A DNA stretch of 64,000 nt from Candidatus Poribacteria bacterium (GCA_965215265.1 OZ244048.1:960001-1024000), one strand, 5' to 3'; shown: positions 32,571 through 52,028, counted from the first letter of the stretch. A program made the numbers and translations. The notes: generated by a model from the sequence alone, not told the origin.

Positions 32571-32797
32571 GAAACACGCAATATCGCATGTTAACTTTAT
32601 TTTAACCTAATACCGCATAATGCCTCTAATCGGGGTTATACGGATATAAGAAAGGAAATCAATTGTGAATATGAAAATTACTGACCAGCTTTTGACAAAG
32701 CCATTGACGACATCAACCCAGACGATGCCAAAAGGGAGTTTAGCTGATTTCTTCCGTTTTGCCTCGCCTGAAACCTCGCCACCTTAAGGAGATTAAA

Positions 32798-33913
32798 ATG
32801 TCACAAGAACGAATTGATAAACTTGCAAACGTGCTCACGACTCACTCCACTAAAGTCCAAACCGGTGAATTTGTGCTTATCGAAGGTATTGACATCCCGC
32901 AAGAAATGGTCATTGCCCTTATCCGTGCGGTGCGGAAAGCCGGAGGAATTCCGCTCGTTGAACTGAAGCAAAACCGTATCCAACGTGAAATCATCCTCGG
33001 GGGTGATGACGCAGGAATAAAACGGGTTGGTGAATATGAAAGGTATCGTATGGAACGCGTGCAGGCTTACATCGGCATACGCGGCAGCCATAACATTACA
33101 GAGATGTCCGACGTGCCGGCGACAGCAATGCAGCGTTATGAAAAACTGTGGTTCATGCCTGTTCACATTGATATCCGCGTGCCAAAGACAAAATGGGTTG
33201 TCCTCCGGTGGCCCCTGCCGTCAATGGCACAACAGGCAAATATGAGCACAGAGGCGTTTGAGGATTTCTATTTTAAAGTTTGCACGCTTGACTACAGCCG
33301 AATGGCACGTGCCATGTCACCCCTCAAAGCGCTCATGGAGGCGACAGACGAAGTCCATATAGTCGGCAAAGGCACTGATTTGCGATTCAGCATCAAGGAT
33401 ATTCCCGTTATTCCATGTGCTGGTGAGAAAAATATCCCTGACGGTGAGTGCTTTACTGCGCCAGTGCGGGATTCTGTCAACGGCACGATCCATTTCAATA
33501 CACCCACAATCTATCAAGGGACCCCCTTTACTGACATCCGGCTCCGCTTTGAAAAGGGTAAAATCGTGGAGGCATCAGCGAACAATAGCGACAGGCTGAA
33601 TCAGATCCTCAATACGGACGAAGGTGCACGTTATATCGGCGAGTTTTCTATTGCGTTCAACCCTTACATCACCAATCCGATGCTTGATATTCTGTTTGAC
33701 GAAAAGATTGCCGGTTCATTTCATTTCACCCCCGGGCAGGCTTACGAGGAAGCAGATAACGGAGTCCATTCCGCTGTGCATTGGGATATGGTAATGATTC
33801 AAACGCCGGCACATGGGGGCGGGGAAATGTATTTCGACGGAAATCTCATTCGGAAGGACGGACGATTTGTCCATTCAGAATTGGAAGCGTTAAATCCGGA
33901 GCACTTGAAATGA
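32798..33913 (+). CDS. Aminopeptidase, M29 (AmpS/PepS-like)
   Basis: [37 protein letters not shown]. Confidence 0.93.
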
Positions 33914-34057
33914 GCAGGAAACAACATAGGGTATACGGAGATCTGCGGCGGTTTGAAGTTTCTGAATATAGATGTAAAAGATTAGACCAATCATGCCGTT
34001 ACAGACGCGTAGATGAACACATTAATCTAAGCTACTCCCCAGTTGAGGAGGATTAAA

Positions 34058-36169
34058 ATGTCACAAGAACGAACAGAGAAAGCCATCCAGGCACTCCAAA
34101 ACACGGCGGTATTGATTGGTAAATCTCAATCGCATCCGGTTGTCATTGCTGATGAGGAAGTCATCCCCGGTTTAGGATTAGACAATGATGCCGGTCTGTT
34201 GTTGGACAGTGTGGATTCGCTAAGAACATCCCAGCTACAAATTGCTTGTATAGGCAGGGCAAATAGCGGCAAGAGCACCCTAATTGAGGCGTTCGTAAAC
34301 AAGGAGATAGTTCAGGTACGGATAGTGCCCACCACTGGTGTGATTACCCGCATTGTTGGCGGCCCTGATTCTGATAAAGTCCGGCTCGTTGAAGGCGGGC
34401 GCGAGCGCGTTATTAGTCTAGAAGAATTCAATGATAAGTATTACCTCACAGAGAAAGAAGTCAATTCCATAGATGCCGGAGATCCTTTCCCTTTGCCCGA
34501 ACACATGGCAAAAGTTGATCACGCAACGCTGCAAATAGACTCGCCTTTCTTGAGACAAGGTATTTCGTTGGTTGATACACTCGGTTTTCAGGCGGGTGCT
34601 AAAGCTAAGATAATTACCAACAATTTTATTGACCGCGCAGATGTTATCTTTCTGGTACTCAATACCCGTGCTCTGCTTGATGCCTCCGAATTAGAATTAG
34701 TGAAAGAGATAGTAGGCAAGTGCACTGGTGATTCTACAAAGATGAGAAATATTTTCTTTGTTGCCAACAATTTCGCACTTGACGATGCAGAGAAACTATC
34801 TGTGGAAGAGACGTTGTTACGCCGTTTGAAACCTTACTTCACCGACGCGTCCGGGCAGTTTGATAAATCCCTCTACGATCGTCGTGTGTTTATAGTAGAC
34901 GCTAAGGCTGCCAGAGCCGTTAGACTCACGGGAGAATCATCAGGCGATGTGCTGGAAAAAACGGGCTTCTCGGCACTGAATAACGAAGTTCAGCAACTGT
35001 TTCGCGATAACGAAAATATCTCCCTCATCTTAGCAGGTGCAAGTCGGCGTGCAGCGTCCGCCGTTCAGAACGCACGAGGCACCATTGAAACTAAGAAAGT
35101 AGCCATCTTTCTAACCGAAGAAGATTGGAAAACAGCCGAAGCAGGTTTTAAAGAGCAACTGGATATAGCGCAAAAGAAAAGAGACGACACCGAAGCCACC
35201 ATTGTCAAATTCTTGAATGGGGCGAAAGAGAAATGCACCTTTCATTTTGAGCGCTATGCTACGGATTACTTTTTTGATGATCCGACTAGGGCTCGTACGG
35301 AGGAAAAGTGGCGTGCCCGATGGACAGAAGCATACACATCTACCGGAGTAGTCGGATTATTCGATATTGTAAAGGCCTCCTTTTCCAAAAACAGCCGGGC
35401 AGAATTGGAGGAAAAATTAGGTGTCGCAATCAAGAAAGTCTTTGATAACCTGTTTACCGGGTGGCAAAAAGCGTTTACGACATATCTAGAGGAGGATGAG
35501 GAACTGAAGACTTTGACAGGCGAACTTGAAGTGGAGCTCAAGGACTTCTCGGTAAAGGTCAATGAACTTCAGCGAACGATCACGAACAAGCCCACTGAGC
35601 CCGTTACGGATTTAGGCGAAAATAGAGAAAAAAAATTGCTACAGGCTTGCATAAGTATTCTGACACTTGATCTCAACCAGACAGTAGGACCGCTCATGCA
35701 GAGCAGCTGGAAGGCTACCCTAATACGTACATTGGCTCACGCTATAGGCCCAATCGTGGCAACACTAATAGCTGGGTTATTCGCTACGGGTCCTATAGCA
35801 GTCGCGGTAGGAATTGCCGTGTTAATAGCTGAAACCATTGCTGTGCTTTTGTGGGACCACTCTGTATTTGAGGCAAAACTCGCCAACCGCGTCGGTGAAG
35901 AATTAAGAAAGAAGATAATGCTAGCCATGCCTGATATAAAGTACGCGTTACATAACAAAATAGATGAAACCTTCAAGGACCGTTTGGCTAAGGTCTCACA
36001 ACGCCTGACTGCAGAAATTGATGAAGTAAAGCGTATATACGACACTTCAGTTGAGACAAGACGTGATGGGCAAGCCCAAATTGATAAAGAGGTGTCACGG
36101 TTAGAAGCTATTGACACCCTTCTCACCAAGCAATTTGAGGAAATCAGTGAGGTCGTGGGTGACGAATAA
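34058..36169 (+). CDS. Bacterial dynamin-like protein (DLP1), full length
   Basis: G1 GRANSGKST, G2 PTT, G3 DTLG, helical stalk, hydrophobic paddle (GPIVATLIAGLFATGPIAVAVGIAVLIA). Confidence 0.88.
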   Translation: MSQERTEKAIQALQNTAVLIGKSQSHPVVIADEEVIPGLGLDNDAGLLLDSVDSLRTSQLQIACIGRANSGKSTLIEAFVNKEIVQVRIVPTTGVITRIVGGPDSDKVRLVEGGRERVISLEEFNDKYYLTEKEVNSIDAGDPFPLPEHMAKVDHATLQIDSPFLRQGISLVDTLGFQAGAKAKIITNNFIDRADVIFLVLNTRALLDASELELVKEIVGKCTGDSTKMRNIFFVANNFALDDAEKLSVEETLLRRLKPYFTDASGQFDKSLYDRRVFIVDAKAARAVRLTGESSGDVLEKTGFSALNNEVQQLFRDNENISLILAGASRRAASAVQNARGTIETKKVAIFLTEEDWKTAEAGFKEQLDIAQKKRDDTEATIVKFLNGAKEKCTFHFERYATDYFFDDPTRARTEEKWRARWTEAYTSTGVVGLFDIVKASFSKNSRAELEEKLGVAIKKVFDNLFTGWQKAFTTYLEEDEELKTLTGELEVELKDFSVKVNELQRTITNKPTEPVTDLGENREKKLLQACISILTLDLNQTVGPLMQSSWKATLIRTLAHAIGPIVATLIAGLFATGPIAVAVGIAVLIAETIAVLLWDHSVFEAKLANRVGEELRKKIMLAMPDIKYALHNKIDETFKDRLAKVSQRLTAEIDEVKRIYDTSVETRRDGQAQIDKEVSRLEAIDTLLTKQFEEISEVVGDE

Positions 36170-37007: not shown

Positions 37008-37280
37008 TACCCTTTCTCGTTTCGATGGCTCACGTGGGCTTTTTGACGCTTTGTTAACGCTCTTTCTTGCATTTCCCTTTTTTGTTGGTGGCTCACGTGG
37101 GCACCCTGCTGGCTCATGTGGCATCTTAAGGTGTCTCATTTCATGCTCTCTTGGCTGTGCGGTCGCATCGCGACCGTTCATTATGGGAAGCGATGAGTCA
37201 GTGCGTCTACAGGAAAGTGCTGACAGATGCAGAGATACAAGCACGTTTAGACCGTTGCTTAAGGAGAAGGCGAACGCACC

Positions 37281-37511
37281 ACTCGACTGTGCTGGAGCAG
37301 ACTGCAAAGCGATGGCAAGAAGGTATCACTGCGACTGAGGACTTGTCCCGAGAGTAGTTCTACGTCTCTCGGGTTCGTGCACGGACGCATTGGGGGTTGC
37401 GGACGCGTCTGAACAATAAGTTTGGAGCGTGTCTTCTCCGCGCGTTCCTGAATCAATGTTTAGGACACCCCTTAGAAGCCAGGAGATGAAAGGAAAACAT
37501 GATGAACATTA
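37281..37511 (+). repeat. 231-bp module duplicated at 45048-45278 (DLP2 fragment + structured spacer + RBS/start)
   Basis: Direct comparison, offset 7767, few mismatches. Confidence 0.9.
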
Positions 37512-38301
37512 GAATTGTCCCAGAAGGAATGGTGCTCATCCCCGGCGGCACCTTCCAGATGGGCAGCAACGATAACGATGCTGAGGCCTGGGATGAAGAA
37601 CAGCCTGTGCATACGGTGCATGTGGACGCGTTCTACATGGACACGCACGAAGTGACGAACGCCGAGTATCAAAGTTTTCTGCTGGCGAATCCCGAGTGGC
37701 AGAAGGGCATCTTCCGGATTTCCTCCACATTGATTATTACCTAGTGGATTGGAACTGGGACGGTAATAACTATCGTCCGGGTAAGGGGGACCATCCTGTG
37801 GAGAGTATGTCGTGGTATGGTGCGATGGCGTATGCTGCGTGGGCAGGTAAGCGTCTTCCAACGGAGGCGGAGTGGGAGTATGCGGCACGCGGTGGGTTAG
37901 TTGGTAAGAAATACCCGTGGGGAGACACGATTACGCCGAACGATGCGAACTACGGTAAGAATGTAGGCGGTACAAAGGCTGTGGGGAGTTATGCTGCGAA
38001 CGGGTATGGGCTGTTCGACATGGCAGGCAACGTGCCAGAGTGGTGTCTGGATGCGTATAATGTGGATTTCTATTCTCAGTCTCCGTCTCGGAATCCGCTG
38101 AGTGGTGTGTCTGGCAGTACGCTCGCGAATCTGGATGAGATTGTAGATAACTATATAATTATTAGGTCTGATCGCGTGTTGCGCGGCGGTAGCTGGGCCA
38201 CTAATTCACGCTACCTGCGCGCCGCGGCTCGCGGCGGGAATGCCCCGACGTTCACGGACTACGACATCGGGTTCCGGTGTGCGAGGGCTGTAACCCCTTA
38301 A
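37499..38301 (+). CDS. FGE-sulfatase/CLec-fold protein, DGR-type target copy 1 (1-nt frameshift at 37705-37707)
   Basis: GMVLIPGGTFQMG, HEVTN, RLPTEAEWEYAARGG, RVLRGGSW...GFRCARAVTP; split across ORFs 37499-37744 and 37696-38301. Confidence 0.88.
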
Positions 38302-38383
38302 ATCTTTAACCCTTTACCCCTTCCGAGCTGCGCGCAGCTCGAGTCGCGACACGAAGAATTTGAACAAAGGAGAATTTATCGTA

Positions 38384-39208
38384 ATGATTCGTACCGAAAC
38401 GCAGACACCAATTGTCCCAGAAGGAATGGTGCCCATCCCCGGCGGCATCTTCCAGATGGGCAGCAACGATGCTGATGCCTGGGATGACGAGCAGTGGGAT
38501 GACGAGCAGCCTGCGCATCCGGTGTTTATGGACACGTTCTACATGGACACGCACGAGGTGACGAATCTGGAATACAAACGTTTTGTGCTGGCGAACCCAC
38601 AGTGGCAGAAGACGCTGATTCCGGATGCACTCCAAAGTGTTTTTTACCTAAAACATTGGAGCGGTAATAACTATCCTTCGGGTGAGGCGAACCATCCGGT
38701 GGTATATGTGTCGTGGTATGCGGCGATGGCATATTCCGCGTGGGCAGGTAAACGTCTTCCGACGGAGGCAGAGTGGGAGAAAGCGGCACGGGCACGCGGT
38801 GGACGATCAGGGTTAAAGTATCCGTGGGGGAATACAATCTCCTCTGCGCGTGCGAACTACGATGATAATGTAGGGGATACGCGTCCTGTGGGGAGTTATG
38901 CGTCGAACGGGTATGGGCTGTATGATATGGCGGGGAACGTGTGGGAGTGGTGCCTGGATGAGTATGATGCGGATTTTTATTCTGCGTCTCCGTCTAGTAA
39001 TCCGCTGAGTGGTGTGTCTGGCAGTATGCTCGCGAATCTGGATGAGATTGTAGATGACTATACAAATATTAAGTCTCGTCGCGTGCTGCGTGGCGGGGGT
39101 TGGCTCGATTTTTCACGCGACCTGCGTGTCGCCGCTCGCTCCAAGAATACGCCAACGCTCACGAGCTCCGGCGTCGGGTTCCGGTGTGCGAGGGCTGTAA
39201 CCCCTTAA
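38384..39208 (+). CDS. FGE-sulfatase/CLec-fold protein, DGR-type target copy 2
   Basis: Same motifs; variable region 39080-39208. Confidence 0.92.
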   Translation: MIRTETQTPIVPEGMVPIPGGIFQMGSNDADAWDDEQWDDEQPAHPVFMDTFYMDTHEVTNLEYKRFVLANPQWQKTLIPDALQSVFYLKHWSGNNYPSGEANHPVVYVSWYAAMAYSAWAGKRLPTEAEWEKAARARGGRSGLKYPWGNTISSARANYDDNVGDTRPVGSYASNGYGLYDMAGNVWEWCLDEYDADFYSASPSSNPLSGVSGSMLANLDEIVDDYTNIKSRRVLRGGGWLDFSRDLRVAARSKNTPTLTSSGVGFRCARAVTP

Positions 39209-39290
39209 ATCTTTAACCCTTTACCCCTTCCGAGCTGCGCGCAGCTCGAGTCGCGACACGAAAAATTTGAACAAAGGAGAATTTATCGTA

Positions 39291-40139
39291 ATGATTCGTA
39301 CCGAAACTCATATTGACATCGCGACTCGATTAGACGATATCGCGGTTTTGATTGGAGCAGAACAAGATAAACCCATTACGCTACACACAGGCGACACCGT
39401 GGAGAGACCTGGACTGGGCCTGTCAACCCACTCGACCGTGCTGGAGCAGACTGCAAAGCGATGGCAAAAAGGTATCACCAACATCCCCGTCGTCGGCTCC
39501 GTTTCTGTCGGTAAATCGACGCTCCTGAATGGCTTGTTGGACACGGACTTACCTGCAGGGAAAGGTGCCGTGACGGGGATAATCCTGGAACTCACGGCTG
39601 AAGCGTTTGACGACTTTAGAGTCTTTTATACGGATGGGACGGAAAAGACGATGACTGCCGAAGCATATCGAGACTTTAGTTGCGTATACACAAGAGACCC
39701 TTTCGTAGGCGGTGGGCCGTTTAGGCTCCCGGCGCGTTTGCAAACTGTTCAGTATGCGCGTTTAGGCAGGCTGCGCGGTTTACCGGAAAAAGGGCTCGTG
39801 TTCATTGATACCCTCGGTTTCAATGCGGGAGGTGCCGCCGCGGCGGTGACGCGCGGCTATCTCAGCAATGCGGATATCGTGATAATGGTTCTCAACAGTA
39901 ACCAACTCTTTACAGAGACAGATGTTGAGATGCTCCGGGATATCGTTGCCGGTGGCATTGAAAGAGAGGGCGTGGAAGACGCGTCGATTTTCTTCGTTAT
40001 CAACACTTTCGCTCAGGATACCGATGCGGATAAAGAGGAAGCGCTGAAGCAGGTGTCAGCGAAACTGGAAGGGCTCGTTCCTCCTGAAAAGAGAGACAAT
40101 CGCATTTTCTTGGTAGATGCGTGGACAGCCAGGAGATGA
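39291..40139 (+). CDS. Dynamin-like protein DLP2, GTPase domain only (truncated)
   Basis: PGLGL N-terminus homologous to DLP1, GSVSVGKST, DTLGF; ends at RIFLVDAWTARR. Confidence 0.8.
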   Translation: MIRTETHIDIATRLDDIAVLIGAEQDKPITLHTGDTVERPGLGLSTHSTVLEQTAKRWQKGITNIPVVGSVSVGKSTLLNGLLDTDLPAGKGAVTGIILELTAEAFDDFRVFYTDGTEKTMTAEAYRDFSCVYTRDPFVGGGPFRLPARLQTVQYARLGRLRGLPEKGLVFIDTLGFNAGGAAAAVTRGYLSNADIVIMVLNSNQLFTETDVEMLRDIVAGGIEREGVEDASIFFVINTFAQDTDADKEEALKQVSAKLEGLVPPEKRDNRIFLVDAWTARR

Positions 40140-40148
40140 AAGGAAAAC

Positions 40149-40988
40149 ATGATGAACATTAGAATTGTCCCAGAAGGAATGGTGCTCATCCCCGGCGGCA
40201 CCTTCCAGATGGGCAGCAAGGATGCCGAGGCCTTAAATGACGAGCAGCCTACGCATACGGTGTATGTGGACGCGTTCTACGACGAGCAGCCTGTGCATAC
40301 GGTGTATGTGGACGCGTTCTACATGGACACGCACGAAGTGACGAACGCCGAGTATAAAAGTTTTCTGCTGGCAAACCCGCAGTGGCAGAAGACGCAGATT
40401 CCGGATGCCCTCCATAATGGTCGTTATCTAAGCCATTGGGACGGTAATAACTATCCAGTGGGTGAGGCGGACCATCCCGTGACGTATGTGTCGTGGTATG
40501 GTGCGATGGCGTATGCTGCGTGGGCGGGTAAGCGTCTTCCAACGGAGGCGGAGTGGGAGAAAGCGGCACGCGGGGGGTTAGTTGATAAGAGATATCCGTG
40601 GGGGGACACGATTACGCCGAACGATGCGAACTACGGTAAGAATGTAGGCGGTACAACGGCTGTGGGGAGTTATGCTGCGAACGGGTATGGGCTGTTCGAC
40701 ATGGCAGGCAACGTGTCAGAGTGGTGTCTGGATGAGTGGGATGCGGATTTTTATTCTCAGTCTCCGTCTCGGAATCCGCTGAGTGGTGTGTCTGGCAGTA
40801 CACTCGCGAATCTGGCTGAGATTGTAGATAACTATACAAATATTGAGTCTGATCGCGTGTTGCGTGGCGGTAGTTGGTACTGTGCTTCACGACTCCTGCG
40901 TGTCACCTTTCGCCCCGAGATTACACCAACGTTCACGCTCTACCCCGCCGGCCTCGGGTTCCGGTGTGCGAGGGCTGTAACCCCTTAA
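40149..40988 (+). CDS. FGE-sulfatase/CLec-fold protein, DGR-type target copy 3
   Basis: Same motifs; 42-nt internal duplication at 40239-40322; variable region 40854-40988. Confidence 0.92.
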   Translation: MMNIRIVPEGMVLIPGGTFQMGSKDAEALNDEQPTHTVYVDAFYDEQPVHTVYVDAFYMDTHEVTNAEYKSFLLANPQWQKTQIPDALHNGRYLSHWDGNNYPVGEADHPVTYVSWYGAMAYAAWAGKRLPTEAEWEKAARGGLVDKRYPWGDTITPNDANYGKNVGGTTAVGSYAANGYGLFDMAGNVSEWCLDEWDADFYSQSPSRNPLSGVSGSTLANLAEIVDNYTNIESDRVLRGGSWYCASRLLRVTFRPEITPTFTLYPAGLGFRCARAVTP

Positions 40989-41080
40989 ATCTTTACCCCT
41001 TTACCCCTTCCGAGCCGTATCCGGAGCGAATGGCACATAGAAGAATTTGAACGATGACTTAAAAAGGAGATTTTATCATA

Positions 41081-41857
41081 ATGAACAGTGCCGAAACTCA
41101 TATTGACAGAGAAGAAACAACCGAACCGCAGACACCAATTGTCCCAGAAGGAATGGTGCTCATCCCCGCAGGCGAGTTCCAGATGGGCAACGACGATCCT
41201 GTGCATACAGTGTATGTAGACGCGTTCTATATGGACACGCACGAAGTGACGAACGCTGAGTATCAAACTTTTGTGCTGGCGAACCCGCAGTGGCAGAAGA
41301 CGCTGATTCCGGATGTTCTCCACAATGGTGATTACCTAAACCATTGGGACGGTAATAACTATCCAGTGGGTATGGGGGACCATCCTGTGACGTATGTGTC
41401 GTGGTATGCGGCGATGGCATATTCCGCGTGGGCAGGGAAGCGTCTTCCAACGGAGGCAGAGTGGAAGAAAGCGGCCGGTGATCTGGCAGTCCCACGTCTG
41501 GGCGATGCGAACTATGCAGCCGGTACAACGGCTGTGGGGAGTTATGCTGCGAACGGGTATGGGCTATATGATATGGCAGGCAACGTGTGGGAGTGGTGTC
41601 TGGATGAGTGGGATGCAGATTTTTATTCTCAGTCTCCGTCTAGTAATCCGCTGAGTGGTGTGTCTGGCAGTATGCTCGCGAATCTGGATGAGATTGTAGA
41701 TGACTATACAAATATTAAGTCTCGTCGCGTGTCGTGTGGCGGGCCTTTGTACGCTGCTCCGTGGGGCCTGCGTGTCGCCAATCTCGGCAGGTATTCTCCA
41801 CCGGCGTTCACGCTCGACTGCTTCGGGTTCCGGTGTGCGCGGGCTGTTACTCCTTAA
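41081..41857 (+). CDS. FGE-sulfatase/CLec-fold protein, DGR-type target copy 4 (somewhat degenerate)
   Basis: Same motifs, but RGGSW is replaced by CGGPL; variable region 41726-41857. Confidence 0.88.
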   Translation: MNSAETHIDREETTEPQTPIVPEGMVLIPAGEFQMGNDDPVHTVYVDAFYMDTHEVTNAEYQTFVLANPQWQKTLIPDVLHNGDYLNHWDGNNYPVGMGDHPVTYVSWYAAMAYSAWAGKRLPTEAEWKKAAGDLAVPRLGDANYAAGTTAVGSYAANGYGLYDMAGNVWEWCLDEWDADFYSQSPSSNPLSGVSGSMLANLDEIVDDYTNIKSRRVSCGGPLYAAPWGLRVANLGRYSPPAFTLDCFGFRCARAVTP

Positions 41858-41925
41858 ATCTTCAACCCTTTACCCCTTCCGAGCTGCATGCAGATGGGCT
41901 TGCGACCTAAGGAGAATTTATCGTA

Positions 41926-43605
41926 ATGAATAGGGCAAAAACTTATATTGATATCGCGTATCTATTCAACGATATCAGGGATGCCCAAAGTGCTCTCGCT
42001 GAAGTACGTGCGACAGTGCCGGATGTGCTGAACACGTTTGACAGCCTCGTAGAAAAGATAGCCAGCCATACCTCTACGCTCTTTCAAAACGAATTCGCCC
42101 TAAAACTGGGAGACGGAGCGTTTTGGCGTGAAAAATGGACAAAAGGTGTATGGTCCCCCATCCGTTGGGCTAGTCTTTGGGCTAGTCTTGTGGGATTTGG
42201 TGTTACTAAGGGAGACGTAAACTTAATGATTCAACTGGCCCTAGAACAGGTGGTTCAGTTTAAACTAGATGCGTGGGTGGCAGCACTTCCCGACAAATTA
42301 ACGGAGCACCTCGATGCCCCTAAGGCACAGCTCCTCGTTAGAGATTTGGACTTGGCATTTGATGAGTTCCAGGTGCGTTTGAAGCGGATCGATTTACACG
42401 TGAAAGGCATTGGCAAGATCAATGCCGTCCAGAGTGATGAGATTGCGAATATAAAGCAGCTCATCTCCGACACTATAGGCTGCGGTTTTGCTATACCCGT
42501 AAGTTCTGCTATAGTTGCTGACTCGATTGTGGAGAATACTGTGTACATGCCTACGGCCCGCCTCATGGCCAATCACATCGCGGATGAAGCCAGGAAACAT
42601 TTCAACGCTACGGGTGCTTATATCGGTGCAGAAATTGAGAGAATAATGGTTGAGAATTTCGCTGTGCCTCGTCAAAAGCTAGCGGCGGTGCTTGAGGATG
42701 AAGTAACTAGGACAGAGCACCGTTTGGAGACGCTGGCGAATATCGTCCACGGCGAACTGATAAAAAAGGCGCGATTAGATTTAGAACCAGAAAAACCAAC
42801 CGAGCAGGAGATACGAGCACATCCGCCGGAGACACTAGTTGTTCCGAAAGGGATGGTGCTGATTCCCGCCGGCGAATTCCTGATGGGCAGCGATGCCGAG
42901 AATGACGAACAGCCTGTGCATCCGGTGTATGTAGACGCGTTCTATATGGATACGCACGAAGTGACGAACGCGGAGTATCAAACTTTTGTGCTGGCAAACC
43001 CGCAGTGGCAGAAGACGCAGATTCCGGATGCCCTCCATAATGGTCGTTATCTAAGCCATTGGGACGGTAATAACTATCCAGTGGGTGAGGCGGACCATCC
43101 CGTGACGTATGTGTCGTGGTATGGTGCAATGGCGTATGCCGCGTGGGCGGGTAAGCGTCTTCCAACGGAGGCGGAGTGGGAGAAAGCGGCACGCGGGGGG
43201 TTAGTTGATAAGAGATATCCGTGGGGGGACACGATTACGCCGAACGATGCGAACTACGGTAAGAATGTAGGCGGTACGACTTCTGTGTGCAGTTATGCTG
43301 CAAACGGGTATGGGCTGTCCGACATGGCAGGCAACGCTTGGGAATGGTGTCTGGATGAGTGGGATGCGGATTTTTATTCTCAGTCTCCGTCTCGGAATCC
43401 GCTGAGTGGTGTGTCTGGCAGTACACTCGCGAATCTGGATGAGATTGTAGATAAATATATAAATATTAAGTCTTCTCGCGTGTTGCACGGCGGTAGTTGG
43501 CTCAATCTTCCACGGGTCGTGCGTGTCGCCAATCGCTTCGGGTATACCCCGTCGTTCGCGCTCACCAACGTCGGTTTCCGGTGCGCGAGGGCTGTAACCC
43601 CTTAA
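41926..43605 (+). CDS. Dynamin-stalk-like helical domain fused to FGE-sulfatase/CLec domain, DGR-type target copy 5
   Basis: N-terminal half aligns with 46847-48061 (VPDVLNTFDSL/VPAVLEAFDNL; DLDLAFDEF/DLDRALDEF); variable region 43477-43605. Confidence 0.88.
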   Translation: MNRAKTYIDIAYLFNDIRDAQSALAEVRATVPDVLNTFDSLVEKIASHTSTLFQNEFALKLGDGAFWREKWTKGVWSPIRWASLWASLVGFGVTKGDVNLMIQLALEQVVQFKLDAWVAALPDKLTEHLDAPKAQLLVRDLDLAFDEFQVRLKRIDLHVKGIGKINAVQSDEIANIKQLISDTIGCGFAIPVSSAIVADSIVENTVYMPTARLMANHIADEARKHFNATGAYIGAEIERIMVENFAVPRQKLAAVLEDEVTRTEHRLETLANIVHGELIKKARLDLEPEKPTEQEIRAHPPETLVVPKGMVLIPAGEFLMGSDAENDEQPVHPVYVDAFYMDTHEVTNAEYQTFVLANPQWQKTQIPDALHNGRYLSHWDGNNYPVGEADHPVTYVSWYGAMAYAAWAGKRLPTEAEWEKAARGGLVDKRYPWGDTITPNDANYGKNVGGTTSVCSYAANGYGLSDMAGNAWEWCLDEWDADFYSQSPSRNPLSGVSGSTLANLDEIVDKYINIKSSRVLHGGSWLNLPRVVRVANRFGYTPSFALTNVGFRCARAVTP

Positions 43606-43696
43606 ATCTTTAACCCTTTATCCCTTCCGAGCCGTATCCGGAGCGAATGGCACATAGAAGAATTTGAACGATGACTTAAAAAGGAGATTTATCAGA

Positions 43697-44653
43697 ATGA
43701 GTCGTACCGAAACTCATATTGACAGAGAAGAACCAACCGAACCGCAGACACCAATTGTCCCAGAAGGAATGGTGCTCATCCCCGCGGGCGACTTCCAGAT
43801 GGGCAGCAACGATTATGATAACGAGCAGCCTGTGCATACGGTGTATGTGGACGCGTTCTATATGGATACGCACGAGGTGACGAACGCCGAGTATAAAACT
43901 TTTGTGCTGGCGAACCCGCAGTGGCAGAAGACGCGGATTCCGGATGTCTTCCACAATCGTTATTACCTATTCTATTGGGACTGGGACGGTAATAACTATC
44001 CAGTGGGTGAGGCGGACCATCCTGTGACGTGGGTGTCGTGGTATGCGGCGATGGCATATTCCGCGTGGGTAGGTAAGCGTCTCCCAACGGAGGCGGAATG
44101 GGAGAAAGCGGCGCGCGGTGGTAATGTAGGGGATACCCGTCCTGTCGGGAGTTATGCTGCGAACGGGTATGGGCTTGATATGGCCGGCAACGTGTGGGAG
44201 TGGTGTCTGGATGCGTATGATTGGGTGTCGTGGTATGCGGCGATGGCATATTCCGCGTGGGTAGGTAAGCGTCTCCCAACGGAGGCGGAATGGGAGAAAG
44301 CGGCGCGCGGTGGTAATGTAGGGGATACCCGTCCTGTCGGGAGTTATGCTGCGAACGGGTATGGGCTTGATATGGCCGGCAACGTGTGGGAGTGGTGTCT
44401 GGATGCGTATGATGCGGATTTTTATTCTGCGTCTCCGTCTAGTAATCCGCTGAGTGGTGTGTCTGGCAGTATGCTCGCGAATCTGGATGAGATTGTATCG
44501 GACTATACAAATATTAAGTCTAGTCGCGCGCTGCGTGGCGGGAGTTGGAACACTGATACCCGTCCCCTGCGCGCCGCTGATCGCACCGGGTGTACGCCGA
44601 TGTTCACGAGCAACGGCCTCGGGTTCCGGTGTGCGAGGGCTGTAACCCCTTAA
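43697..44653 (+). CDS. FGE-sulfatase/CLec-fold protein, DGR-type target copy 6
   Basis: Same motifs; exact 192-nt tandem duplication 44030-44221/44222-44413; variable region 44525-44653. Confidence 0.9.
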   Translation: MSRTETHIDREEPTEPQTPIVPEGMVLIPAGDFQMGSNDYDNEQPVHTVYVDAFYMDTHEVTNAEYKTFVLANPQWQKTRIPDVFHNRYYLFYWDWDGNNYPVGEADHPVTWVSWYAAMAYSAWVGKRLPTEAEWEKAARGGNVGDTRPVGSYAANGYGLDMAGNVWEWCLDAYDWVSWYAAMAYSAWVGKRLPTEAEWEKAARGGNVGDTRPVGSYAANGYGLDMAGNVWEWCLDAYDADFYSASPSSNPLSGVSGSMLANLDEIVSDYTNIKSSRALRGGSWNTDTRPLRAADRTGCTPMFTSNGLGFRCARAVTP

Positions 44654-44706
44654 ATCTTTAACCCTTTACCCCTTCCGAGCTGCAGGCAGCTCGGACCGAG
44701 AATGCA

Positions 44707-44877
44707 ATGAAAAGTCCCGAGAAGAAAACACGGAAAAATCCCTAGAAAACTCGAGATTCGACCAAACTCAATGGCTCACTAGGCAGCGGCGCAATCGCCT
44801 CACCGGTGAGTCCTCTGACTATACTGAAATTGATCGTGAAAGGATTAATAAGAGTTTTCGGAAAGACTAATAAGTAA
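44707..44877 (+). pseudogene. Second copy of the amphipathic peptide gene with an in-frame TAG
   Basis: MKSPEKKTRKNP*KTRDSTKLNGSLGSGAIASPVSPLTILKLIVKGLIRVFGKTNK. Confidence 0.5.
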
Positions 44878-44896
44878 GTTAAGTGAGGTTTTGTCA

Positions 44897-45124
44897 ATGA
44901 ATGAAAGCAAAAATCCCTCTGAAACGCATATTGACATCGCGACTCGATTAGACGATATCGCGGTTTTGATTGGAGCAGAACAGGATAAAGCCATTACGCT
45001 ACACACAGGCGACATCGTGGAGAGACCTGGACTGGGCTTGTTAACCTACTCGACTGTGCTGGAGCAGACTGCAAAGCGATGGCAAGAAGGTATCACTGCG
45101 ACTGAGGACTTGTCCCGAGAGTAG
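44897..45124 (+). pseudogene. Chimeric DLP2 N-terminal fragment
   Basis: MNESKNP start (as at 32138) joined to ETHIDIATRLDDIAVLIG...RWQEGITA. Confidence 0.7.
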
Positions 45125-45265
45125 TTCTACGTCTCTCGGGTTCGTGCGCGGACGCATTGGGGGTTGCGGACGCGTCTGAACAATAAGTTTGGAGCGTGTC
45201 TTCTCTGCGCGTGCCTGAATCAATGTTTAGGACACCCCTTAGAAGACAGGAGATGAAAGGAAAAC

Positions 45266-45706
45266 ATGATGAACATTATAGCAGAGCATCACAAAGTCAT
45301 TGCAGAGTGTGACAAAGTCATTGCCACGGCAGACGGCCATCGTGGCGAGCTTAACAAAGCACTTGCCCTGGTACACTACGGGCGCGGCAGAGCGAAGTTA
45401 ATCTTGCATAAAACCAAAGACGCGATATGGAATTCTGACCCAGACATTAAATACGCGATAGCCGCATTGGATTTTGACGCAGGCATTAAATACGCGATAG
45501 CCGATTTTGACACAGCCATTCACATCAACCCAAACGCGGCCGAGGCATACTACTATCGCGGCAAGGCGCGTTTAGCCTTGGATCACCTCGACTCCGCGAT
45601 AGCCGATTTTGACACAGCCATTCACATCAACCCAAAATATGTCGAGGCCCACCACTTGCGCGCAGAGGCGAAGTTAATGAGGGAGCGGGTTCCGGCGATG
45701 GTGTAG
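45266..45706 (+). CDS. Tetratricopeptide repeat protein
   Basis: AIADFDTAIHINP twice, AEAYYYRG. Confidence 0.82.
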   Translation: MMNIIAEHHKVIAECDKVIATADGHRGELNKALALVHYGRGRAKLILHKTKDAIWNSDPDIKYAIAALDFDAGIKYAIADFDTAIHINPNAAEAYYYRGKARLALDHLDSAIADFDTAIHINPKYVEAHHLRAEAKLMRERVPAMV

Positions 45707-45921
45707 AAAAGACGCGATTAGCCCGCATAGAATCTACGCTCCGTTCGCAATTCGAGGTGCTGAGTGTGCACGTCTACGGGCGAGTACTGACGGATGCCGA
45801 GATACGAACGCGTATAGAACCGGATCAAAGCAGCAGCGGCGAAAGCAGCGCTGGCTAAGACGAGGATGGCTGCGCAGGTGCGAGCGTGCCGGCGCAGCGG
45901 CTTTCAAGGAGATTTATCAGA

Positions 45922-46764
45922 ATGAGTCGTGTAGAAACTCATATTGACAGAGAAGAAACAACCCAACCGCAGACACCAATTGTCCCAAAAGGAATGGTGC
46001 TCATCCCTGCAGGCAACTTCCAGATGGGCAGCGATGCTGCTGATGCGTGGGATAACGAGCAGCCTGTGCATACGGTGCATGTGGACGCGTTCTATATGGA
46101 TACGCACGAAGTAACGAACGCCGAGTATAAAATTTTTGTGCTGGAGAACCCCAAGTGGCAGCATGTTGCGGATGCACCCGGTGATGATGTTCATCTGGCC
46201 GATTGGATTGGTAAAAATGACTATCCTTGGGGTGAGAGAGACCATCCTGTGACATATGTGTCATGGTATGGTGCAATGGCGTATGCGGCGTGGGCAGGTA
46301 AGCGTCTTCCGACGGAGGCAGAGTGGGAGAAAGCGGCACGCGGGGGGTTAGTTGGTAAGAAATACCCATGGGGGGACACGATAATGCCGAACGATGCGAA
46401 CTATTGGAGCGGCGGCACGGATAAGGATTATGTAGACGGTACAACGGCTGTGGGGAGTTATCCCCCGAACGGATATGGGTTATATGACATGGTCGGCAAC
46501 GTGTCAGAGTGGTGCCTGGATGAGTATAATGAGGATTTCTATTCTGCGTCTCCGTCTAGTAATCCGCTGAGTGGTGTGTCTGGCAGTATGCTCGCGAATC
46601 TGGATGAGATTGTAGATGACTATACAAATATTAAGTCTCGTCGCGTGTCGCGCGGCGGTGGCTGGTGCCTTAATTCATGGTACCTGCGCGCCGCGGAGCG
46701 CGAAGGGACTGCACCGAGTAGGGCCCTCAGCGGTTTCCGGTGTGCACGGGCTGTTACTCCTTAA
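45922..46764 (+). CDS. FGE-sulfatase/CLec-fold protein, DGR-type target copy 7
   Basis: Same motifs; variable region 46642-46764. Confidence 0.92.
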   Translation: MSRVETHIDREETTQPQTPIVPKGMVLIPAGNFQMGSDAADAWDNEQPVHTVHVDAFYMDTHEVTNAEYKIFVLENPKWQHVADAPGDDVHLADWIGKNDYPWGERDHPVTYVSWYGAMAYAAWAGKRLPTEAEWEKAARGGLVGKKYPWGDTIMPNDANYWSGGTDKDYVDGTTAVGSYPPNGYGLYDMVGNVSEWCLDEYNEDFYSASPSSNPLSGVSGSMLANLDEIVDDYTNIKSRRVSRGGGWCLNSWYLRAAEREGTAPSRALSGFRCARAVTP

Positions 46765-46846
46765 ATCTTCAACCCTTTACCCCTTCCGAGCTGCATGCAG
46801 ATGGGCTTGCGACACGAAGAATTTGAACAAAGGAGAATTTATCATA

Positions 46847-48061
46847 ATGATTCGTACCGAAACTCATATTGACATCGCGACTCGATTAGACGATATCGCG
46901 GTTTTGATTGGATTAGAACAAGATAAAGCCATTACGCTACACACAGGCGACATCGTGGAGAGACCTGGACTGGGCTTGTCAACCCACTCGACCGTGCTGG
47001 AGCAGACTGCAAAGCGATGGCGAGAAGGTATCACTGCGATTGGGGCCTTGGAACATGCGATGGATAACGGTGTCCTCCGGGCAATAGATGCGGCTTCGCA
47101 GGAGATTGCGCTGAGAAGAAAGGTGCTCGAGATGGGGGCGGCGGCGCGTGAAAGGGCTATCGCGGCCTCGCAAATTTATCTCGCGAAAGCGCGTGCGAAA
47201 GTGCCGGCTGTGCTGGAAGCGTTTGACAACCTCGCAGAAGAGGTGGCGGCACGTGCCGAGACGCGCTTTCAAACGGAAGTGCCGGCTGTGCTGGGAAGAG
47301 CGTATTTGCGTGAAGAGCTGGAAAGAAGGTGGCGTGAAGTAGGGGAAATACTAAAAGCCAGCGTTGAAGAATCTGACGCACGGCACCTCGTCGGCGATTT
47401 GGATCGGGCCCTTGATGAGTTCTGGGCGGTTTTGAAGCGGGGCGATTTACACCTCAAACGCATTCGCCGGATTTATGTCGGCCCGAGTGATGCGACCGCG
47501 AATTGGAAGTGGCTCATCTTCGAAGCTATAGGCCTGGGTCTAGAGGATATCAGTGCTATCAACTTAGGCTATACTGCGGATATCAGTGCTATCAACTTAG
47601 GCTATACTGCGGACTTCCGCTCTTTTCTCAGAGGCGTATTTTTCCTTTGGCCTGAACAGGCATTTTTTTATAGATACGGCGCACAGAGTTTCGCTGCGCA
47701 TCGTGAAAAACTGGAGGCGGCACTTGATGACGAGATAAGTGGCAGAGAGAAACGCTTGCAGACGCTGCGTCAGGCAAACCGTGATGAGACTAACACTCAG
47801 GAAACACAAGCGAGATTAGAGGGCATAGCGTCCGCGCTGCGTTCGCAATGGGAAGCGATGAGTCAGCGCGTCTACGGAAAAGTGCTGACAGATGCAAAGA
47901 TACAAGCACGTTTAGAACCGTTGCTTAAGGAGAAGGCGAACGCATGGCAACGAGAAAAGAGTCGTTCCAGATGGGCGAAACAGAGCGTGAGTAGGCGAGC
48001 GCAGCTGCCCAACGTCCTCTCTATCAAGCACGGACGAAAAAACAGGATGTGGCGATATTGA
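46847..48061 (+). CDS. DLP2 derivative lacking the GTPase domain (N-terminal helix joined in frame to the stalk)
   Basis: Start near-identical to 39291 up to RW.EGIT, then a helical region ending RLEGIASALRSQWEAMS (compare DLP1 RLEAIDTLLTKQFEEIS). Confidence 0.72.
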   Translation: MIRTETHIDIATRLDDIAVLIGLEQDKAITLHTGDIVERPGLGLSTHSTVLEQTAKRWREGITAIGALEHAMDNGVLRAIDAASQEIALRRKVLEMGAAARERAIAASQIYLAKARAKVPAVLEAFDNLAEEVAARAETRFQTEVPAVLGRAYLREELERRWREVGEILKASVEESDARHLVGDLDRALDEFWAVLKRGDLHLKRIRRIYVGPSDATANWKWLIFEAIGLGLEDISAINLGYTADISAINLGYTADFRSFLRGVFFLWPEQAFFYRYGAQSFAAHREKLEAALDDEISGREKRLQTLRQANRDETNTQETQARLEGIASALRSQWEAMSQRVYGKVLTDAKIQARLEPLLKEKANAWQREKSRSRWAKQSVSRRAQLPNVLSIKHGRKNRMWRY

Positions 48062-48846: not shown

Positions 48847-50259
48847 GTGAGGTTCCGAATGAAGAAATGGATGAGCAGTGTGCTATTAGCAAGTTGGTTA
48901 GTAGGAGGAATTGGATTTGCACTGTCTGGCAACGCCCAAGGGCAGTCTCCCGTAATAAACGGAGACGCAGAAATACTGTGGACCGGCAAGGCAGATATGG
49001 ATGAAATCCTCAAGGATATCGGTTATCGGGCGACGCGCCACATCGCCGAAGTGCCTGAGGTAGACGTGGTGTTTGTGGTTGACGGCTCGCTGCAGATGGT
49101 AGGATCGATTGGAATAGTTGAGAGAAACTTCGTTACGCTGCTAGACGCGCTTGAGAAGAAGACTTTAGATTACCGGTTTGCGATGCTCGCGTTTCGGTTG
49201 GTCAAAGGGCAACCGAATGTTAAGTTACTCCCATGGACTTTTGACCGTGCAGCGGTTGAAAAGCAATTGAGCTACATACGGCGTGTTTGGAGAGGCGACT
49301 TTGAGACAGGACACGGGCTAGATGCGCTGATGCAAGGATTAAATGAATTCAGGTTTAAGGCAGACGCAATCACGCAGTTCGTTATCATCACCAATTCGCC
49401 ACTTACAACCATCCGTCCTGAGGATGAAGCCCGAAAGAGAATGATCGAACAAATTATCAACAGTTGCTACCGGGATAAGGTTCAGCTCAACTTTATCGGC
49501 ATCCAGGACAGCGTGCAGATTGAACTGGCCGGCAAGACGGGCGGCAAATGGTATCCTATTATCCACGGGACATCACCGCCCCTAGATCCTGTCCAAATCC
49601 TGGGCATTCCTGATAGGCTAAAGCAACTGCGAGGGCATCCTGATAGGCTAAACAAGACGGTCGATAAAATTTTCGAACAAATCGCAGAATTTCTGATTGA
49701 CGGTGCCCCTAACAAATTGGATATTGTCTTCCTTTTTGATTGCAGTCGAAGCATGAGAAACAGGGTTGATGCCGTGTGTGATGGACTGGATGAGATGGTG
49801 ACGGTGTTGAACGCTGCACGGCTCGACTATCGGTTTGGGGTAATCCGTTTTTGGGCTAAACCGGGGCTCTCTGGACAAAGTACTGTCCTGGTTAGCAAGC
49901 CGCCGCTAAAAGTAGCGTCGGTGAAGAAGCTATTCCGCAGACCGAAAGCCGGAACAGAGCGTTTATTGGATGCCATTGTGGAAGGAGTGCCGAAATTGCG
50001 GACACCGGCAGAGCGTTCGCTGGTCTTGATTATCGTCACCGATGAACCCACGAATAAAGACGACCCAAATATGTGGACGGTAAATAAGGCAATTGAGGTT
50101 TGCCAGGGAGCACAGGCTCGCGTTTATGTCCTCGGAGGTCTTAGCTTTGCAAACGGAATTTTGAGGAGAGATCCATTCCAACGTAGAATCGCCGTATTAA
50201 CCAAAGGGGCGTACTACACGATGCGGGGGGCACCGATGTTCGATTTGCGTCTAGAGTGA
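48847..50259 (+). CDS. Secreted protein with two von Willebrand factor A domains
   Basis: Signal peptide; DVVFVVDGSLQM and DIVFLFDCSRSM MIDAS-like motifs; IIVTDEP. Confidence 0.8.
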   Translation: MRFRMKKWMSSVLLASWLVGGIGFALSGNAQGQSPVINGDAEILWTGKADMDEILKDIGYRATRHIAEVPEVDVVFVVDGSLQMVGSIGIVERNFVTLLDALEKKTLDYRFAMLAFRLVKGQPNVKLLPWTFDRAAVEKQLSYIRRVWRGDFETGHGLDALMQGLNEFRFKADAITQFVIITNSPLTTIRPEDEARKRMIEQIINSCYRDKVQLNFIGIQDSVQIELAGKTGGKWYPIIHGTSPPLDPVQILGIPDRLKQLRGHPDRLNKTVDKIFEQIAEFLIDGAPNKLDIVFLFDCSRSMRNRVDAVCDGLDEMVTVLNAARLDYRFGVIRFWAKPGLSGQSTVLVSKPPLKVASVKKLFRRPKAGTERLLDAIVEGVPKLRTPAERSLVLIIVTDEPTNKDDPNMWTVNKAIEVCQGAQARVYVLGGLSFANGILRRDPFQRRIAVLTKGAYYTMRGAPMFDLRLE

Positions 50260-51191: not shown

Positions 51192-52028
51192 ATGAAATTT
51201 AAACGCGAAGAAATTTTACCTCGATTGCGGGCAAATATTGATGCAGGTAAACCGATCCTCGGTGCCGGGGCCGGGACCGGTATCTCTGCTAAATGCGAAG
51301 AAGCCGGCGGTATCGACCTGATTATTATCTACAACTCCGGCAGATTCCGGATGGCAGGGAGAGGCTCCCTCGCCGGCATGATGCCCTACGGAGATGCAAA
51401 CCACATCGTGGTTGAGATGGCAAGCGAAGTACTACCTGTTGTCCAAAATACACCTGTGCTTGCCGGAGTCTGTGGCACAGATCCGTTTCGACTCATGGAT
51501 GTCTTCCTCCAGCAGATAGATGCAATCGGGTTTTCCGGCGTGCAGAACTTCCCCACGGTCGGGTTGATTGATGGCACATTCCGCCAACTGCTTGAAGAGA
51601 CGGATATGGGCTACGGTCCGGAAGTGGAGATGATTCGTCTTGCACACGCGATGGGTCTGCTCACAACACCGTACGCGTTTAACGAATCAGAAGCAGAGCA
51701 GATGGCAGATGCAGGCGCGGATATCCTGGTTGCACACATGGGCTTGACAACAAAAGGCTCTATTGGCGCGAAGACCTCTCTTACGCTTGAGGACGCAGCA
51801 AAAAGGGTGCAAGCCATACACGATGCCGCGACAGGCGTTAACCCGGAGATCCTTGTAATTTGCCACGGAGGACCCATCGCAGAACCTGAAGATGCAAAAT
51901 ACGTCTTGGAAAATACGCACGGCATCGTTGGATTCTATGGCGCATCCAGTGCTGAACGTTTGCCGACAGAGCACGCAATTACAGCCCAAATTGAAGCGTT
52001 CAGGGAACAACTCAAACTGTCACAATAA
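51192..52028 (+). CDS. Phosphoenolpyruvate hydrolase-like TIM-barrel protein
   Basis: [44 protein letters not shown]. Confidence 0.9.

Follow-up and report, generated by a model that had tools for sequence, protein, structure and literature searches.

Seven clustered lectin-fold genes of a Poribacteria bacterium with 3′ ends probably diversified by a single, distant retroelement

Why would neighboring paralogous genes that are nearly identical on both sides of a short block near their 3′ ends differ strongly within that block? The question is raised by a 64,000-nt stretch of the chromosome of a Candidatus Poribacteria bacterium (GCA_965215265.1, OZ244048.1:960001-1024000), here called the window, which is C1:960001-1024000 of the genome; coordinates below are window positions (genome coordinate minus 960000) unless marked as C1 or genome positions. 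Seven plus-strand open reading frames (ORFs), ending at 38301, 39208, 40988, 41857, 43605, 44653 and 46764, all match the Pfam family FGE-sulfatase (7 of 7, E-values of 1e-44 to 3e-74), and an alignment of the last ~260 nt of the seven copies shows near-identity flanking both sides of an ~80-nt variable block. An initial annotation had attributed this block to a diversity-generating retroelement (DGR) located elsewhere. In DGRs, a reverse transcriptase (RT) and the accessory protein Avd copy the RNA of a template repeat (TR) into cDNA, misincorporating bases opposite template adenines, and the cDNA replaces a variable region (VR) of a target gene. We find that the seven are very probably paralogous, non-enzymatic C-type lectin (CLec) genes whose C-terminal ~113 nt are VRs of the single, distant DGR of this genome.

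Variable regions of the array and a distant template

The genes of the array are the following.

37499..38301, plus strand: copy 1 gene, FGE-sulfatase/CLec (Pfam FGE-sulfatase 1.1e-44 on a 201-aa part)
38360..39208, plus strand: copy 2 gene, stand-alone CLec, 282 aa (Pfam 1.3e-61)
40149..40988, plus strand: copy 3 gene, CLec, 279 aa (Pfam 2.6e-63)
41081..41857, plus strand: copy 4 gene, CLec, 258 aa (Pfam 1.3e-47)
41926..43605, plus strand: copy 5 gene, 559-aa chimera (Pfam FGE-sulfatase at residues 308-555)
43664..44653, plus strand: copy 6 gene, CLec, 329 aa (Pfam 3.1e-74 in four stretches)
45886..46764, plus strand: copy 7 gene, CLec, 292 aa (Pfam 1.5e-64)

Neither an RT nor a TR was found within the 64-kb window, as the initial annotation had stated, and a search of the 4.83-Mb single-contig genome (95% complete) with RVT_1 returned exactly one match (C1:1420096-1420737; 85 bits, cut-off 29.6) and hence no second RT. 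The match belongs to a cassette 414-423 kb downstream of the array with the order FGE-sulfatase target (the cognate target), bAvd, RT, TR. The Avd protein has 118 aa (Pfam bAvd 2.6e-23; NCBIfam NF033474 DivGenRetAVD, 120.2 bits against a cut-off of 80), and the RT has 354 aa, its best NCBIfam match being a group II intron RT at 143.6, below the cut-off of 300. The stretches IGNLTSQ and YVDD, read by eye in the RT, are presumably marks of DGR RTs. The TR is 112 nt long with 35 adenines, starts 87 nt after the RT stop codon, repeats the 3′ end of the cognate target and lies on the same chromosome as the array VRs, 414-423 kb from them. RT, Avd and TR are all intact.

The initial annotation had reconstructed a 90-nt template from the VRs of the array and predicted that it would be found beside a DGR RT and avd. 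Such a template exists at the expected kind of place, and the TR equals the reconstructed sequence at 83 of 90 positions (compared by eye); three of the seven mismatches are the probably older haplotype of copies 2-5 described below, and one (ATC) is the state of the TR of a relative. The TR adenines are distributed 19/12/4 over codon positions 1/2/3, and among the 20 codons with an adenine, 18 are able to change the residue and none is able to become a stop codon. The potential computed from these codons is ~10^17.6 peptides per VR.

A stretch of ~28 nt, GGGGTTGCCAGAGTTGGT.TGCCTCCGA, follows the TR (L001 2582-2610) and is also found 3′ of a TR-like, adenine-rich repeat in the relative G007 (L104 3690-3720); it may be part of a structured DGR RNA. 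In G007 the RT query gave only a 29%-identical match on another contig, and no RT-length ORF (in the set of ORFs of at least 100 aa) lies immediately upstream of the TR-like repeat.

When the real TR was used as a BLAST query, the VRs of the array were located at the starts given first in the lines below, each followed by a 3′ element that contains a stretch resembling the initiation of mutagenic homing (IMH) site, a spacer and a hairpin.

38172..38341, plus strand: copy 1 VR (38172-38284) and 3′ element, with IMH-like GGGCTGT.., stop codon, spacer and hairpin at 38324-38341
39079..39248, plus strand: copy 2 VR (39079-39191) and 3′ element, hairpin at 39231-39248
40853..41030, plus strand: copy 3 VR (40853-40971) and 3′ element, degenerate hairpin
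41725..41900, plus strand: copy 4 VR (41725-41839) and 3′ element, broken hairpin
43474..43650, plus strand: copy 5 VR (43474-43588) and 3′ element, degenerate hairpin as in copy 3
44524..44695, plus strand: copy 6 VR (44524-44636) and 3′ element, hairpin at 44674-44695, the strongest of the array
46641..46810, plus strand: copy 7 VR (46641-46747) and 3′ element, broken hairpin as in copy 4

These starts differ by just 1-3 nt from those assigned without the template, and the codons 1, 2, 3 and 6 that had been read after the Trp codon are identical in our alignment. All seven VRs stop 17 nt short of the stop codon of the FGE-sulfatase ORF. The VR of copy 3 is two codons (6 nt) longer than the TR, in the AAC tract, and that of copy 7 is 6 nt shorter. 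In copy 4, which is internally shortened, the Trp codon is replaced by TTG.

The variation is concentrated at codon positions 1 and 2, as had been noticed from the window: over the 21 pairs of copies, differences per site in the 90-nt VR core are 0.434, 0.359 and 0.235 at codon positions 1, 2 and 3, compared with 0.108, 0.127 and 0.189 in the 399 nt upstream of the VR (chi-square p-value of 4e-19, which is nominal, the 21 pairs being non-independent). The contrast is sharpest between copies 3 and 5, which the initial annotation had singled out for the same reason: they are 93.5% identical over 400 nt upstream and 95.6% identical over 45 nt downstream, yet within the VR they share 31% of the template-adenine sites and 91% of the other sites.

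Comparison of each VR with the TR gave the following counts, in the order changed and kept A sites, then changed and kept non-A sites.

Copy 1: 20, 15, 1, 76
Copy 2: 23, 12, 8, 69
Copy 3: 23, 12, 7, 70
Copy 4: 27, 8, 12, 65
Copy 5: 23, 12, 8, 69
Copy 6: 20, 15, 6, 71
Copy 7: 20, 11, 10, 65
All seven pooled: 156, 85, 52, 485

Thus 156 of 241 A sites (65%) are changed versus 52 of 537 non-A sites (10%), with an odds ratio of 17 and a Fisher p-value of 9e-56 in which sites are treated as independent, which they are not. The same bias is found in every copy taken alone (p-values between 3e-7 and 9e-12), so that the count of mismatches at A versus non-A positions, proposed by the initial annotation as a check, comes out adenine-specific in all seven copies. 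Compared pairwise with one another, the copies agree at a fraction of 0.19-0.49 of the A sites and 0.77-0.96 of the non-A sites. The cognate VR differs from the TR at 16 A sites and at no non-A site. Set against the criterion excerpted from PMC5758913, that only A-to-N changes occur with minor exceptions, copy 1 has one non-A mismatch, and copies 2-7 have 6-12, mostly belonging to a shared haplotype that is probably older.

At the (AAC)4 tract of the TR, VRs differ in length in steps of one codon: relative to the TR, 3 nt are added in the cognate VR (L001 ~540-560) and in several others, and 6 nt in copy 3 (window 40930-40960). This variation suggests either slippage of the RT on the AAC repeat or the loss of one AAC unit from the TR.

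Although the fold is that of a formylglycine-generating enzyme (FGE), with PDB matches of copy 2 to FGEs at 5e-40 and to TvpA (2y3c) at 1.6e-9, the catalytic Cys pair is absent from copy 2, the one copy aligned: relative to the solved FGEs 6s07 and 6muj, the LCHxSYC stretch, which falls inside the VR, corresponds to a 3-residue gap and to D-F-S. The absence of the pair, too, had been anticipated.

A genome-wide bank, its 3′ element and template haplotypes

Apart from the TR itself, a BLAST search of the whole genome with the TR identified 39 VR-like segments, distributed over 27 ORFs and 18 loci (coordinates grouped by hand). Twenty-seven of the segments are C-terminal and 12 are internal, the latter in proteins with two or three CLec domains. 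The same search revealed no other adenine-rich copy that could be a second TR, every other match having at least 13 A-to-N changes. Because the 39 FGE-sulfatase matches are VR-bearing lectin domains, and copy 2 is without the Cys pair, they are not to be read as a capacity for sulfatase maturation.

Four paralogous proteins with three CLec domains each provide an internal control. Between these paralogs, 28-35 of 35 A sites are identical in the first and second VR-like segments but just 5-12 of 35 in the C-terminal VRs, despite the fact that the non-A sites are alike in internal and terminal segments (65-76 of 77). Internal VRs are thus frozen and terminal ones scrambled, and we conclude that rewriting went on after duplication of the paralogs, only at VRs that have the 3′ element. 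This element is conserved, together with its hairpin, downstream of terminal VRs and not of internal ones. It consists of an IMH-like stretch, GGGCTGT.AC.CC, that continues into the stop codon, a spacer of ~20 nt rich in C and T, and a GC-rich hairpin with a stem of 7-10 bp and a 4-nt loop, located ~38 nt past the end of the TR-VR homology. The IMH-like stretch and the spacer are present in seven of the seven window VRs.

The hairpins themselves are unequal. Folding energies, computed as DNA for 18 of 24 elements (the remainder come from a scan for exact stems), are -7.7 kcal/mol for the cognate hairpin, -7.1 kcal/mol for each of copies 1 and 2, -9.8 kcal/mol for copy 6, -3.0 kcal/mol for copies 3 and 5, and -1.9 kcal/mol for copies 4 and 7; a strong hairpin is therefore kept in copies 1, 2 and 6 only. 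Two versions of the stem occur, GAGCTGC/GCAGCTC and GATCTGC/GCAGATC, with changes on both sides and pairing kept. Hybrids of the two versions fold weakly, and the hairpin of copy 4 combines the left arm of one stem type with a mutated right arm.

Four VRs of the genome have no non-A mismatch to the TR (genome positions 1419064, 1795832, 4150258 and 4795102), and all four are followed by a hairpin of the cognate type. Two of them are out of frame, C1:4150258-4150365 by -5 nt and C1:4795102-4795218 by +2 nt, with the indels in adenine-derived tracts; these could be products of faulty homing, or consensus errors in a heterogeneous population. A repeat of ~55 nt (GGCTTATGA.CAGC.AAAGATAAAAC...GGTGTGATGGTGAGT.GGCCGTGTGCC) was also observed 3′ of the hairpin in several target genes outside the window (C1 near 212040, 762280, 1264590, 3264440 and 4143660). 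At 1264590 it stands in place of the 3′ element, and its AAAGATAAAACC part recurs downstream of the TR (L001 2685-2700).

The non-A differences from the TR do not fall at random: six linked changes, T12, G18, T21, T48, T50 and C54, are found repeatedly, in 10-14 of the 27 terminal VRs. We refer to the haplotype of the present TR as class I and to the six linked changes as class II. Copies 2-5 are class II, copy 5 at five of the six linked sites and copy 4 with six private changes in addition. Copies 1 and 7 agree with class I at all six sites except site 54, where each has a private change (a G in copy 1); the private changes of copy 7 total 10. In copy 6 the two classes form a mosaic, class II at sites 12, 18 and 21 and class I at sites 48, 50 and 54, the pattern that would be expected if cDNA of the present TR had invaded the VR from its 3′ end, with a crossover about halfway along. 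Across the genome, at least five of the six class II changes are present in 11 of the 27 terminal VRs, and none of the 11 is class I at site 48, 50 or 54. The TR BLAST detected no class II template in the genome. Since copies 2-5 carry the six linked differences, they would have been last written by an earlier version of the template or by a second template since lost. Class II is probably an older state of the TR, because T21, T50 and C54 are found in the TR of a same-family relative. Copies 3 and 5 are both class II, with 93.5% identical flanks and 31% of A sites shared, from which it follows that the class II template was active after their duplication.

Read from sequence comparison, the relation between TR and VRs is adenine-specific, rewriting took place after duplication of the paralogs, and it is confined to VRs with the 3′ element; on the same grounds we attribute the writing of the window array to this DGR lineage. 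The view of the initial annotation, that these are remote targets diversified in trans, is upheld as to DGR origin by the adenine bias between TR and VRs and by the single RT with its Avd; it is refined in that copies 2-5 appear to have been last written by an older or lost template.

Outside the window the targets carry other domains. Dockerin_1 is present on 9 of 18 scanned non-window target proteins, and Cohesin plus Dockerin, PA14, Peptidase_C14 and Peptidase_C39 occur on one each, the Peptidase_C14 target carrying three CLec domains. The dockerin and cohesin partners suggest hypervariable lectins displayed on a scaffold. The window copies, unlike these domain-tagged targets, are bare CLec domains, and no lipoprotein or signal sequence was seen in them by eye.

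The dynamin-like island and its relatives

The array occupies part of an island of ~16 kb between housekeeping genes, an M29 peptidase gene (32759-33913) and a PEP-hydrolase-like gene (51192-52028). Its remaining genes are these.

34043..36169, plus strand: dynamin-like GTPase, full-length, 708 aa, at the head of the island (Pfam Dynamin_N 4.5e-15)
39267..40139, plus strand: dynamin-like fragment, 290 aa (leader and GTPase domain), between copies 2 and 3 (Dynamin_N 1.5e-16)
46847..48061, plus strand: deletion derivative that joins the leader to a helical part and lacks a GTPase domain, located 3′ of copy 7 (by comparison with copy 5 and 39267..40139)
48847..50259, plus strand: vWA-domain protein, at the end of the island (Pfam)

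The first 65 aa of the 290-aa fragment are 91% identical to 46847-48061, and the 481-aa ORF 46616-48061, which contains 46847-48061 in frame, matched no Pfam family. In copy 5, a CLec domain is fused in frame to an N-terminal part (residues 1-300) with homology to the helical C-terminal half of a rare family of dynamin-like GTPases: this part is 37% identical to 46847-48061 and matches the C-terminal parts of Dynamin_N proteins of 691 and 722 aa at E-values of 1e-53 and 1e-51. A search of a database of 5.8 billion proteins with the first 300 aa of copy 5 found only three relatives, all on one contig and none with FGE-sulfatase (proteins of 307-979 aa). Elsewhere in the genome Dynamin_N occurs in three other places only, none of them near a VR.

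In PADLOC the 708-aa protein scored as LeoBC (1.2e-15) and LeoA (2.2e-12), in a library without a curated cut-off, and the 290-aa fragment scored as LeoA (2.3e-14), again with no curated cut-off; any bacterial dynamin-like protein might score so, and the matches serve as a lead at most. As an Eleos pair, the second dynamin-like gene (290 aa) is truncated. No PADLOC match was obtained for a CLec copy, copy 5, the vWA protein or the flanking genes.

The island is rich in repeated pieces and deletion derivatives. A 70-nt segment of the dynamin-like leader (family D11) is present in five copies, 77-100% identical, at 36664, 39361, 44979, 46917 and 48476, and the 3′ end of the dynamin-like gene is present in three, at 37175, 45742 and 47840. 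The junctions of stop codon, hairpin and next start that follow copies 1 and 2 are 98% identical to each other (repeat family D5), which fits growth of the array by unequal recombination. Copy 6 contains in its interior a perfect tandem duplication of 192 nt (44030-44221 and 44222-44413, 100% identical; repeat family D13), which repeats a 64-aa CLec block and is either a very recent event or an assembly artifact. Alignment with copies 3 and 5 shows a 1-nt gap in copy 1 that divides the gene into two overlapping ORFs, 37499-37744 and 37696-38301; the gap adjoins a G run (~37700-37745), and the VR of the same copy is the best match of the array to the present TR.

Among relatives of the RT, the closest (83% identity) comes from an uncultured Poribacteria metagenome-assembled genome (MAG) of the same family as the window's genome, followed by three uncultured MAGs at 59-68% (two labeled uncultured bacterium, one Nitrospirota) and then, at 53-60%, mostly by cyanobacteria with a few other phyla interspersed. 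The TR query matched in 7 of 21 genomes, the window's own included, with 36 matches in the latter, 13 in G005, 12 in G003, two each in G008 and G011, and one each in G007 and G021. The same-genus genome G002 gave none, and no DGR RT was found in it; in G003, with its 12 VR-like matches, the window RT query yet found no RT. FGE-sulfatase matches number 10 in G002, 24-42 in G003, G005, G007 and G008, and 58 in the window's genome, the last at a looser threshold and not strictly comparable. This distribution indicates that the DGR system is gained and lost quickly among kin. The two genes that flank the island are ~2 Mb apart in G002. In G005, three CLec genes, two of which include dockerin, flank a 723-aa dynamin-like gene that is 27% identical to that of the window; the neighborhood thus recurs once, in kin.

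Alternative explanations, known systems and meaning

The following sequence of events would account for the array. Avd-RT cDNA of the TR would be anchored at the invariant 3′ end of the VR (GGGTTCCGGTGTGCGA) and at downstream cis elements, here the IMH-like GGGCTGT.AC.CC, the ~20-nt spacer and the GC-rich hairpin. The array would have grown by unequal recombination between modules of CLec, 3′ element and next-gene leader within an island of dynamin-like GTPase genes, and a partial rewrite by the present TR would have left copy 6 with an old 5′ part and a new 3′ part. From the ages of the haplotypes and the strengths of the hairpins we infer that the copies differ in how recently they were written, so that few of them, if any, are likely targets of rewriting today. 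Present rewriting is plausible for copies 1 and 6 only, and less so for copy 2.

Several observations weigh against the array being a set of targets of the present DGR. Six of the seven copies carry 6-12 non-A mismatches to the present TR, and the six linked differences common to copies 2-5 would be erased by a full rewrite from it. Four of the seven hairpins are weak (-1.9 to -3.0 kcal/mol, compared with -7.7 for the cognate hairpin), copy 1 is frameshifted, and copies 4, 6 and 7 carry internal deletions or duplications. The p-values assume an independence of sites and of pairs that does not hold. Finally, in four sequencing runs of another study the contigs over the locus are only 200-1100 nt long and cross-map, with 209-262 pieces per run fitting two places, and differences or joints in them (for example 38196 to 38264 in the VR of copy 1) are not assignable to one copy.

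Such points give substance to the idea that the array is a fossil, a decaying pile of duplicated modules whose VRs were written in the past and none of which is rewritten now. Non-A mismatches of 1, 8, 7, 12, 8, 6 and 10 in copies 1-7, the class II haplotype of copies 2-5, the weak or broken hairpins of copies 3, 4, 5 and 7, the frameshift of copy 1, the truncated or chimeric dynamin-like genes and the five remnants of the dynamin leader are all consistent with it. We take this explanation seriously but consider it on the whole unlikely, given that the hairpin of copy 1 is intact and its VR has only one non-A mismatch, that copy 6 combines the strongest hairpin with a mosaic that is class II in its 5′ part and class I in its 3′ part, and that RT, Avd and TR are intact. 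It is rather unlikely that a second template of class II sequence, with or without an RT of its own and now lost or present in other cells, wrote copies 2-5 and the other class II VRs. The uniformity of the 11 terminal VRs with all or all but one of the class II changes, none of them class I at sites 48, 50 or 54, would be explained by it, as would the divergence at A sites of the class II copies 3 and 5 after their duplication; the genome, however, holds no second adenine-rich copy of the TR and only one RT, and T21, T50 and C54 in the TR of the same-family relative fit class II as the ancestral state of one template.

That the repeats were collapsed or expanded during assembly of this metagenome-derived chromosome is very improbable. 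The 100% identical 192-nt duplication of copy 6, the G-run frameshift of copy 1 and the breaking of short-read contigs across the locus are what such an artifact would produce, but the flanks of the seven copies are only 68-94% identical and each copy has a distinct VR, the four runs contain 69-73% of the sampled words of the stretch, and a 1087-nt contig matches 41877-42963 exactly in all four. Ordinary divergence of paralogs, with diversifying selection on the ligand-binding tip and no retroelement, can be dismissed almost entirely: paralogous binding proteins are often most variable at their binding loops, but here the variation tracks the adenines of one distant non-coding sequence (65% versus 10% of sites), that sequence adjoins an RT and an Avd gene, and internal domains of the same fold are invariant at those sites. 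We therefore return to the reading of the array as remote VRs of the single DGR, written at different times.

The system is of a known kind, a chromosomal DGR with remote CLec targets, and is extreme in its targets per template. Among the systems closest to it is the DGR of Treponema denticola (TvpA and its remote targets), which is also chromosomal and has FGE-sulfatase-type CLec targets, several of them far from the RT; its seven non-adjacent targets are the largest number given in the excerpted text of the survey PMC5758913. In contrast, one TR here matches 27 terminal and 12 internal VR-like segments, the accessory gene is bAvd, and the nearest relatives of the RT are of cyanobacterial and not spirochaetal type. 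According to the excerpts of PMC5758913, a DGR has up to eight targets in tandem or up to seven that are non-adjacent, remote targets are confined to non-phage lineages, and one gene has three FGE domains. Against these figures the 39 VR-like segments for one TR agree with the impression first gained from the window, that the bank is unusual in number and density; targets per template are about four times the largest per-DGR count there (7 non-adjacent or 8 tandem).

In the cyanobacterial clade described in excerpts of Vallota-Eastman et al. 2020 (PMC7517822), 121 DGR-diversified genes are spread over 21 genomes, roughly six per genome, whereas 27 ORFs are found here in one genome of a Poribacteria family. 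Both have remote targets with VRs near the 3′ termini and stand-alone CLec genes, and the orthocaspase-CLec fusions reported in that text have a counterpart in the Peptidase_C14 protein with three CLec domains; the partners here are Dockerin_1, Cohesin, PA14 and Peptidase_C39, and those named there are Ser/Thr kinases. Thiohalocapsa sp. PB-PSB1 (Dore et al. 2024, PMC10907252, as excerpted) has nine loci of four classes with 15 targets and 21 VRs, compared with a single RT and TR for 39 VR-like segments here. In that organism the action in trans of a TR on VRs of other loci was inferred from perfect non-A matches, targets with three VRs are most often variable in the last, and expansion was by intragenomic duplication, according to the excerpted text; diversification was measured there in populations, and here by sequence comparison only. 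The word dynamin has no occurrence in PMC10907252, and the approach of PMC8144416, as its excerpt states, is unable to detect remote targets.

The DGR of Bordetella phage BPP-1 (Mtd) is a cis-acting phage system with one target, and the mechanistic model derived from it comprises adenine mutagenesis, an IMH at the 3′ end of the VR and, farther downstream, a GC-rich hairpin or cruciform on which homing depends. The targets described here differ in being chromosomal and remote, with a hairpin ~38 nt beyond the TR-VR homology. Judged from listings, searches of the open literature turned up nothing relevant on DGRs in Poribacteria or sponge symbionts or on DGR targets with dockerin or dynamin, only incidental co-mentions, and the same is true of Poribacteria together with formylglycine or with dockerin and cohesin. 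Dockerin, cohesin and PA14 as partners of DGR targets, and dynamin-like genes as their neighbors, were not found in print.

An attractive, though improbable, extension is that one retroelement maintains ~27 hypervariable lectin genes in two settings, dockerin-tagged on cohesin scaffolds and as a cytoplasmic array wired to Eleos-type dynamin-like GTPases. If true, the window array would be a diversifiable sensor bank for a membrane-remodeling defense module in a bacterium of a Poribacteria family. The bank would also be the largest single-template DGR bank that we found described, although the per-genome supplementary tables of PMC5758913 and PMC7517822, which lie outside the excerpted texts, could hold larger ones. 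The locus comes with its own controls for homing, in frozen and scrambled VRs, intact and broken hairpins, and old and new haplotypes; internal and terminal VRs together with two template epochs would make it a natural experiment on how a trans-acting DGR chooses its targets and abandons them.

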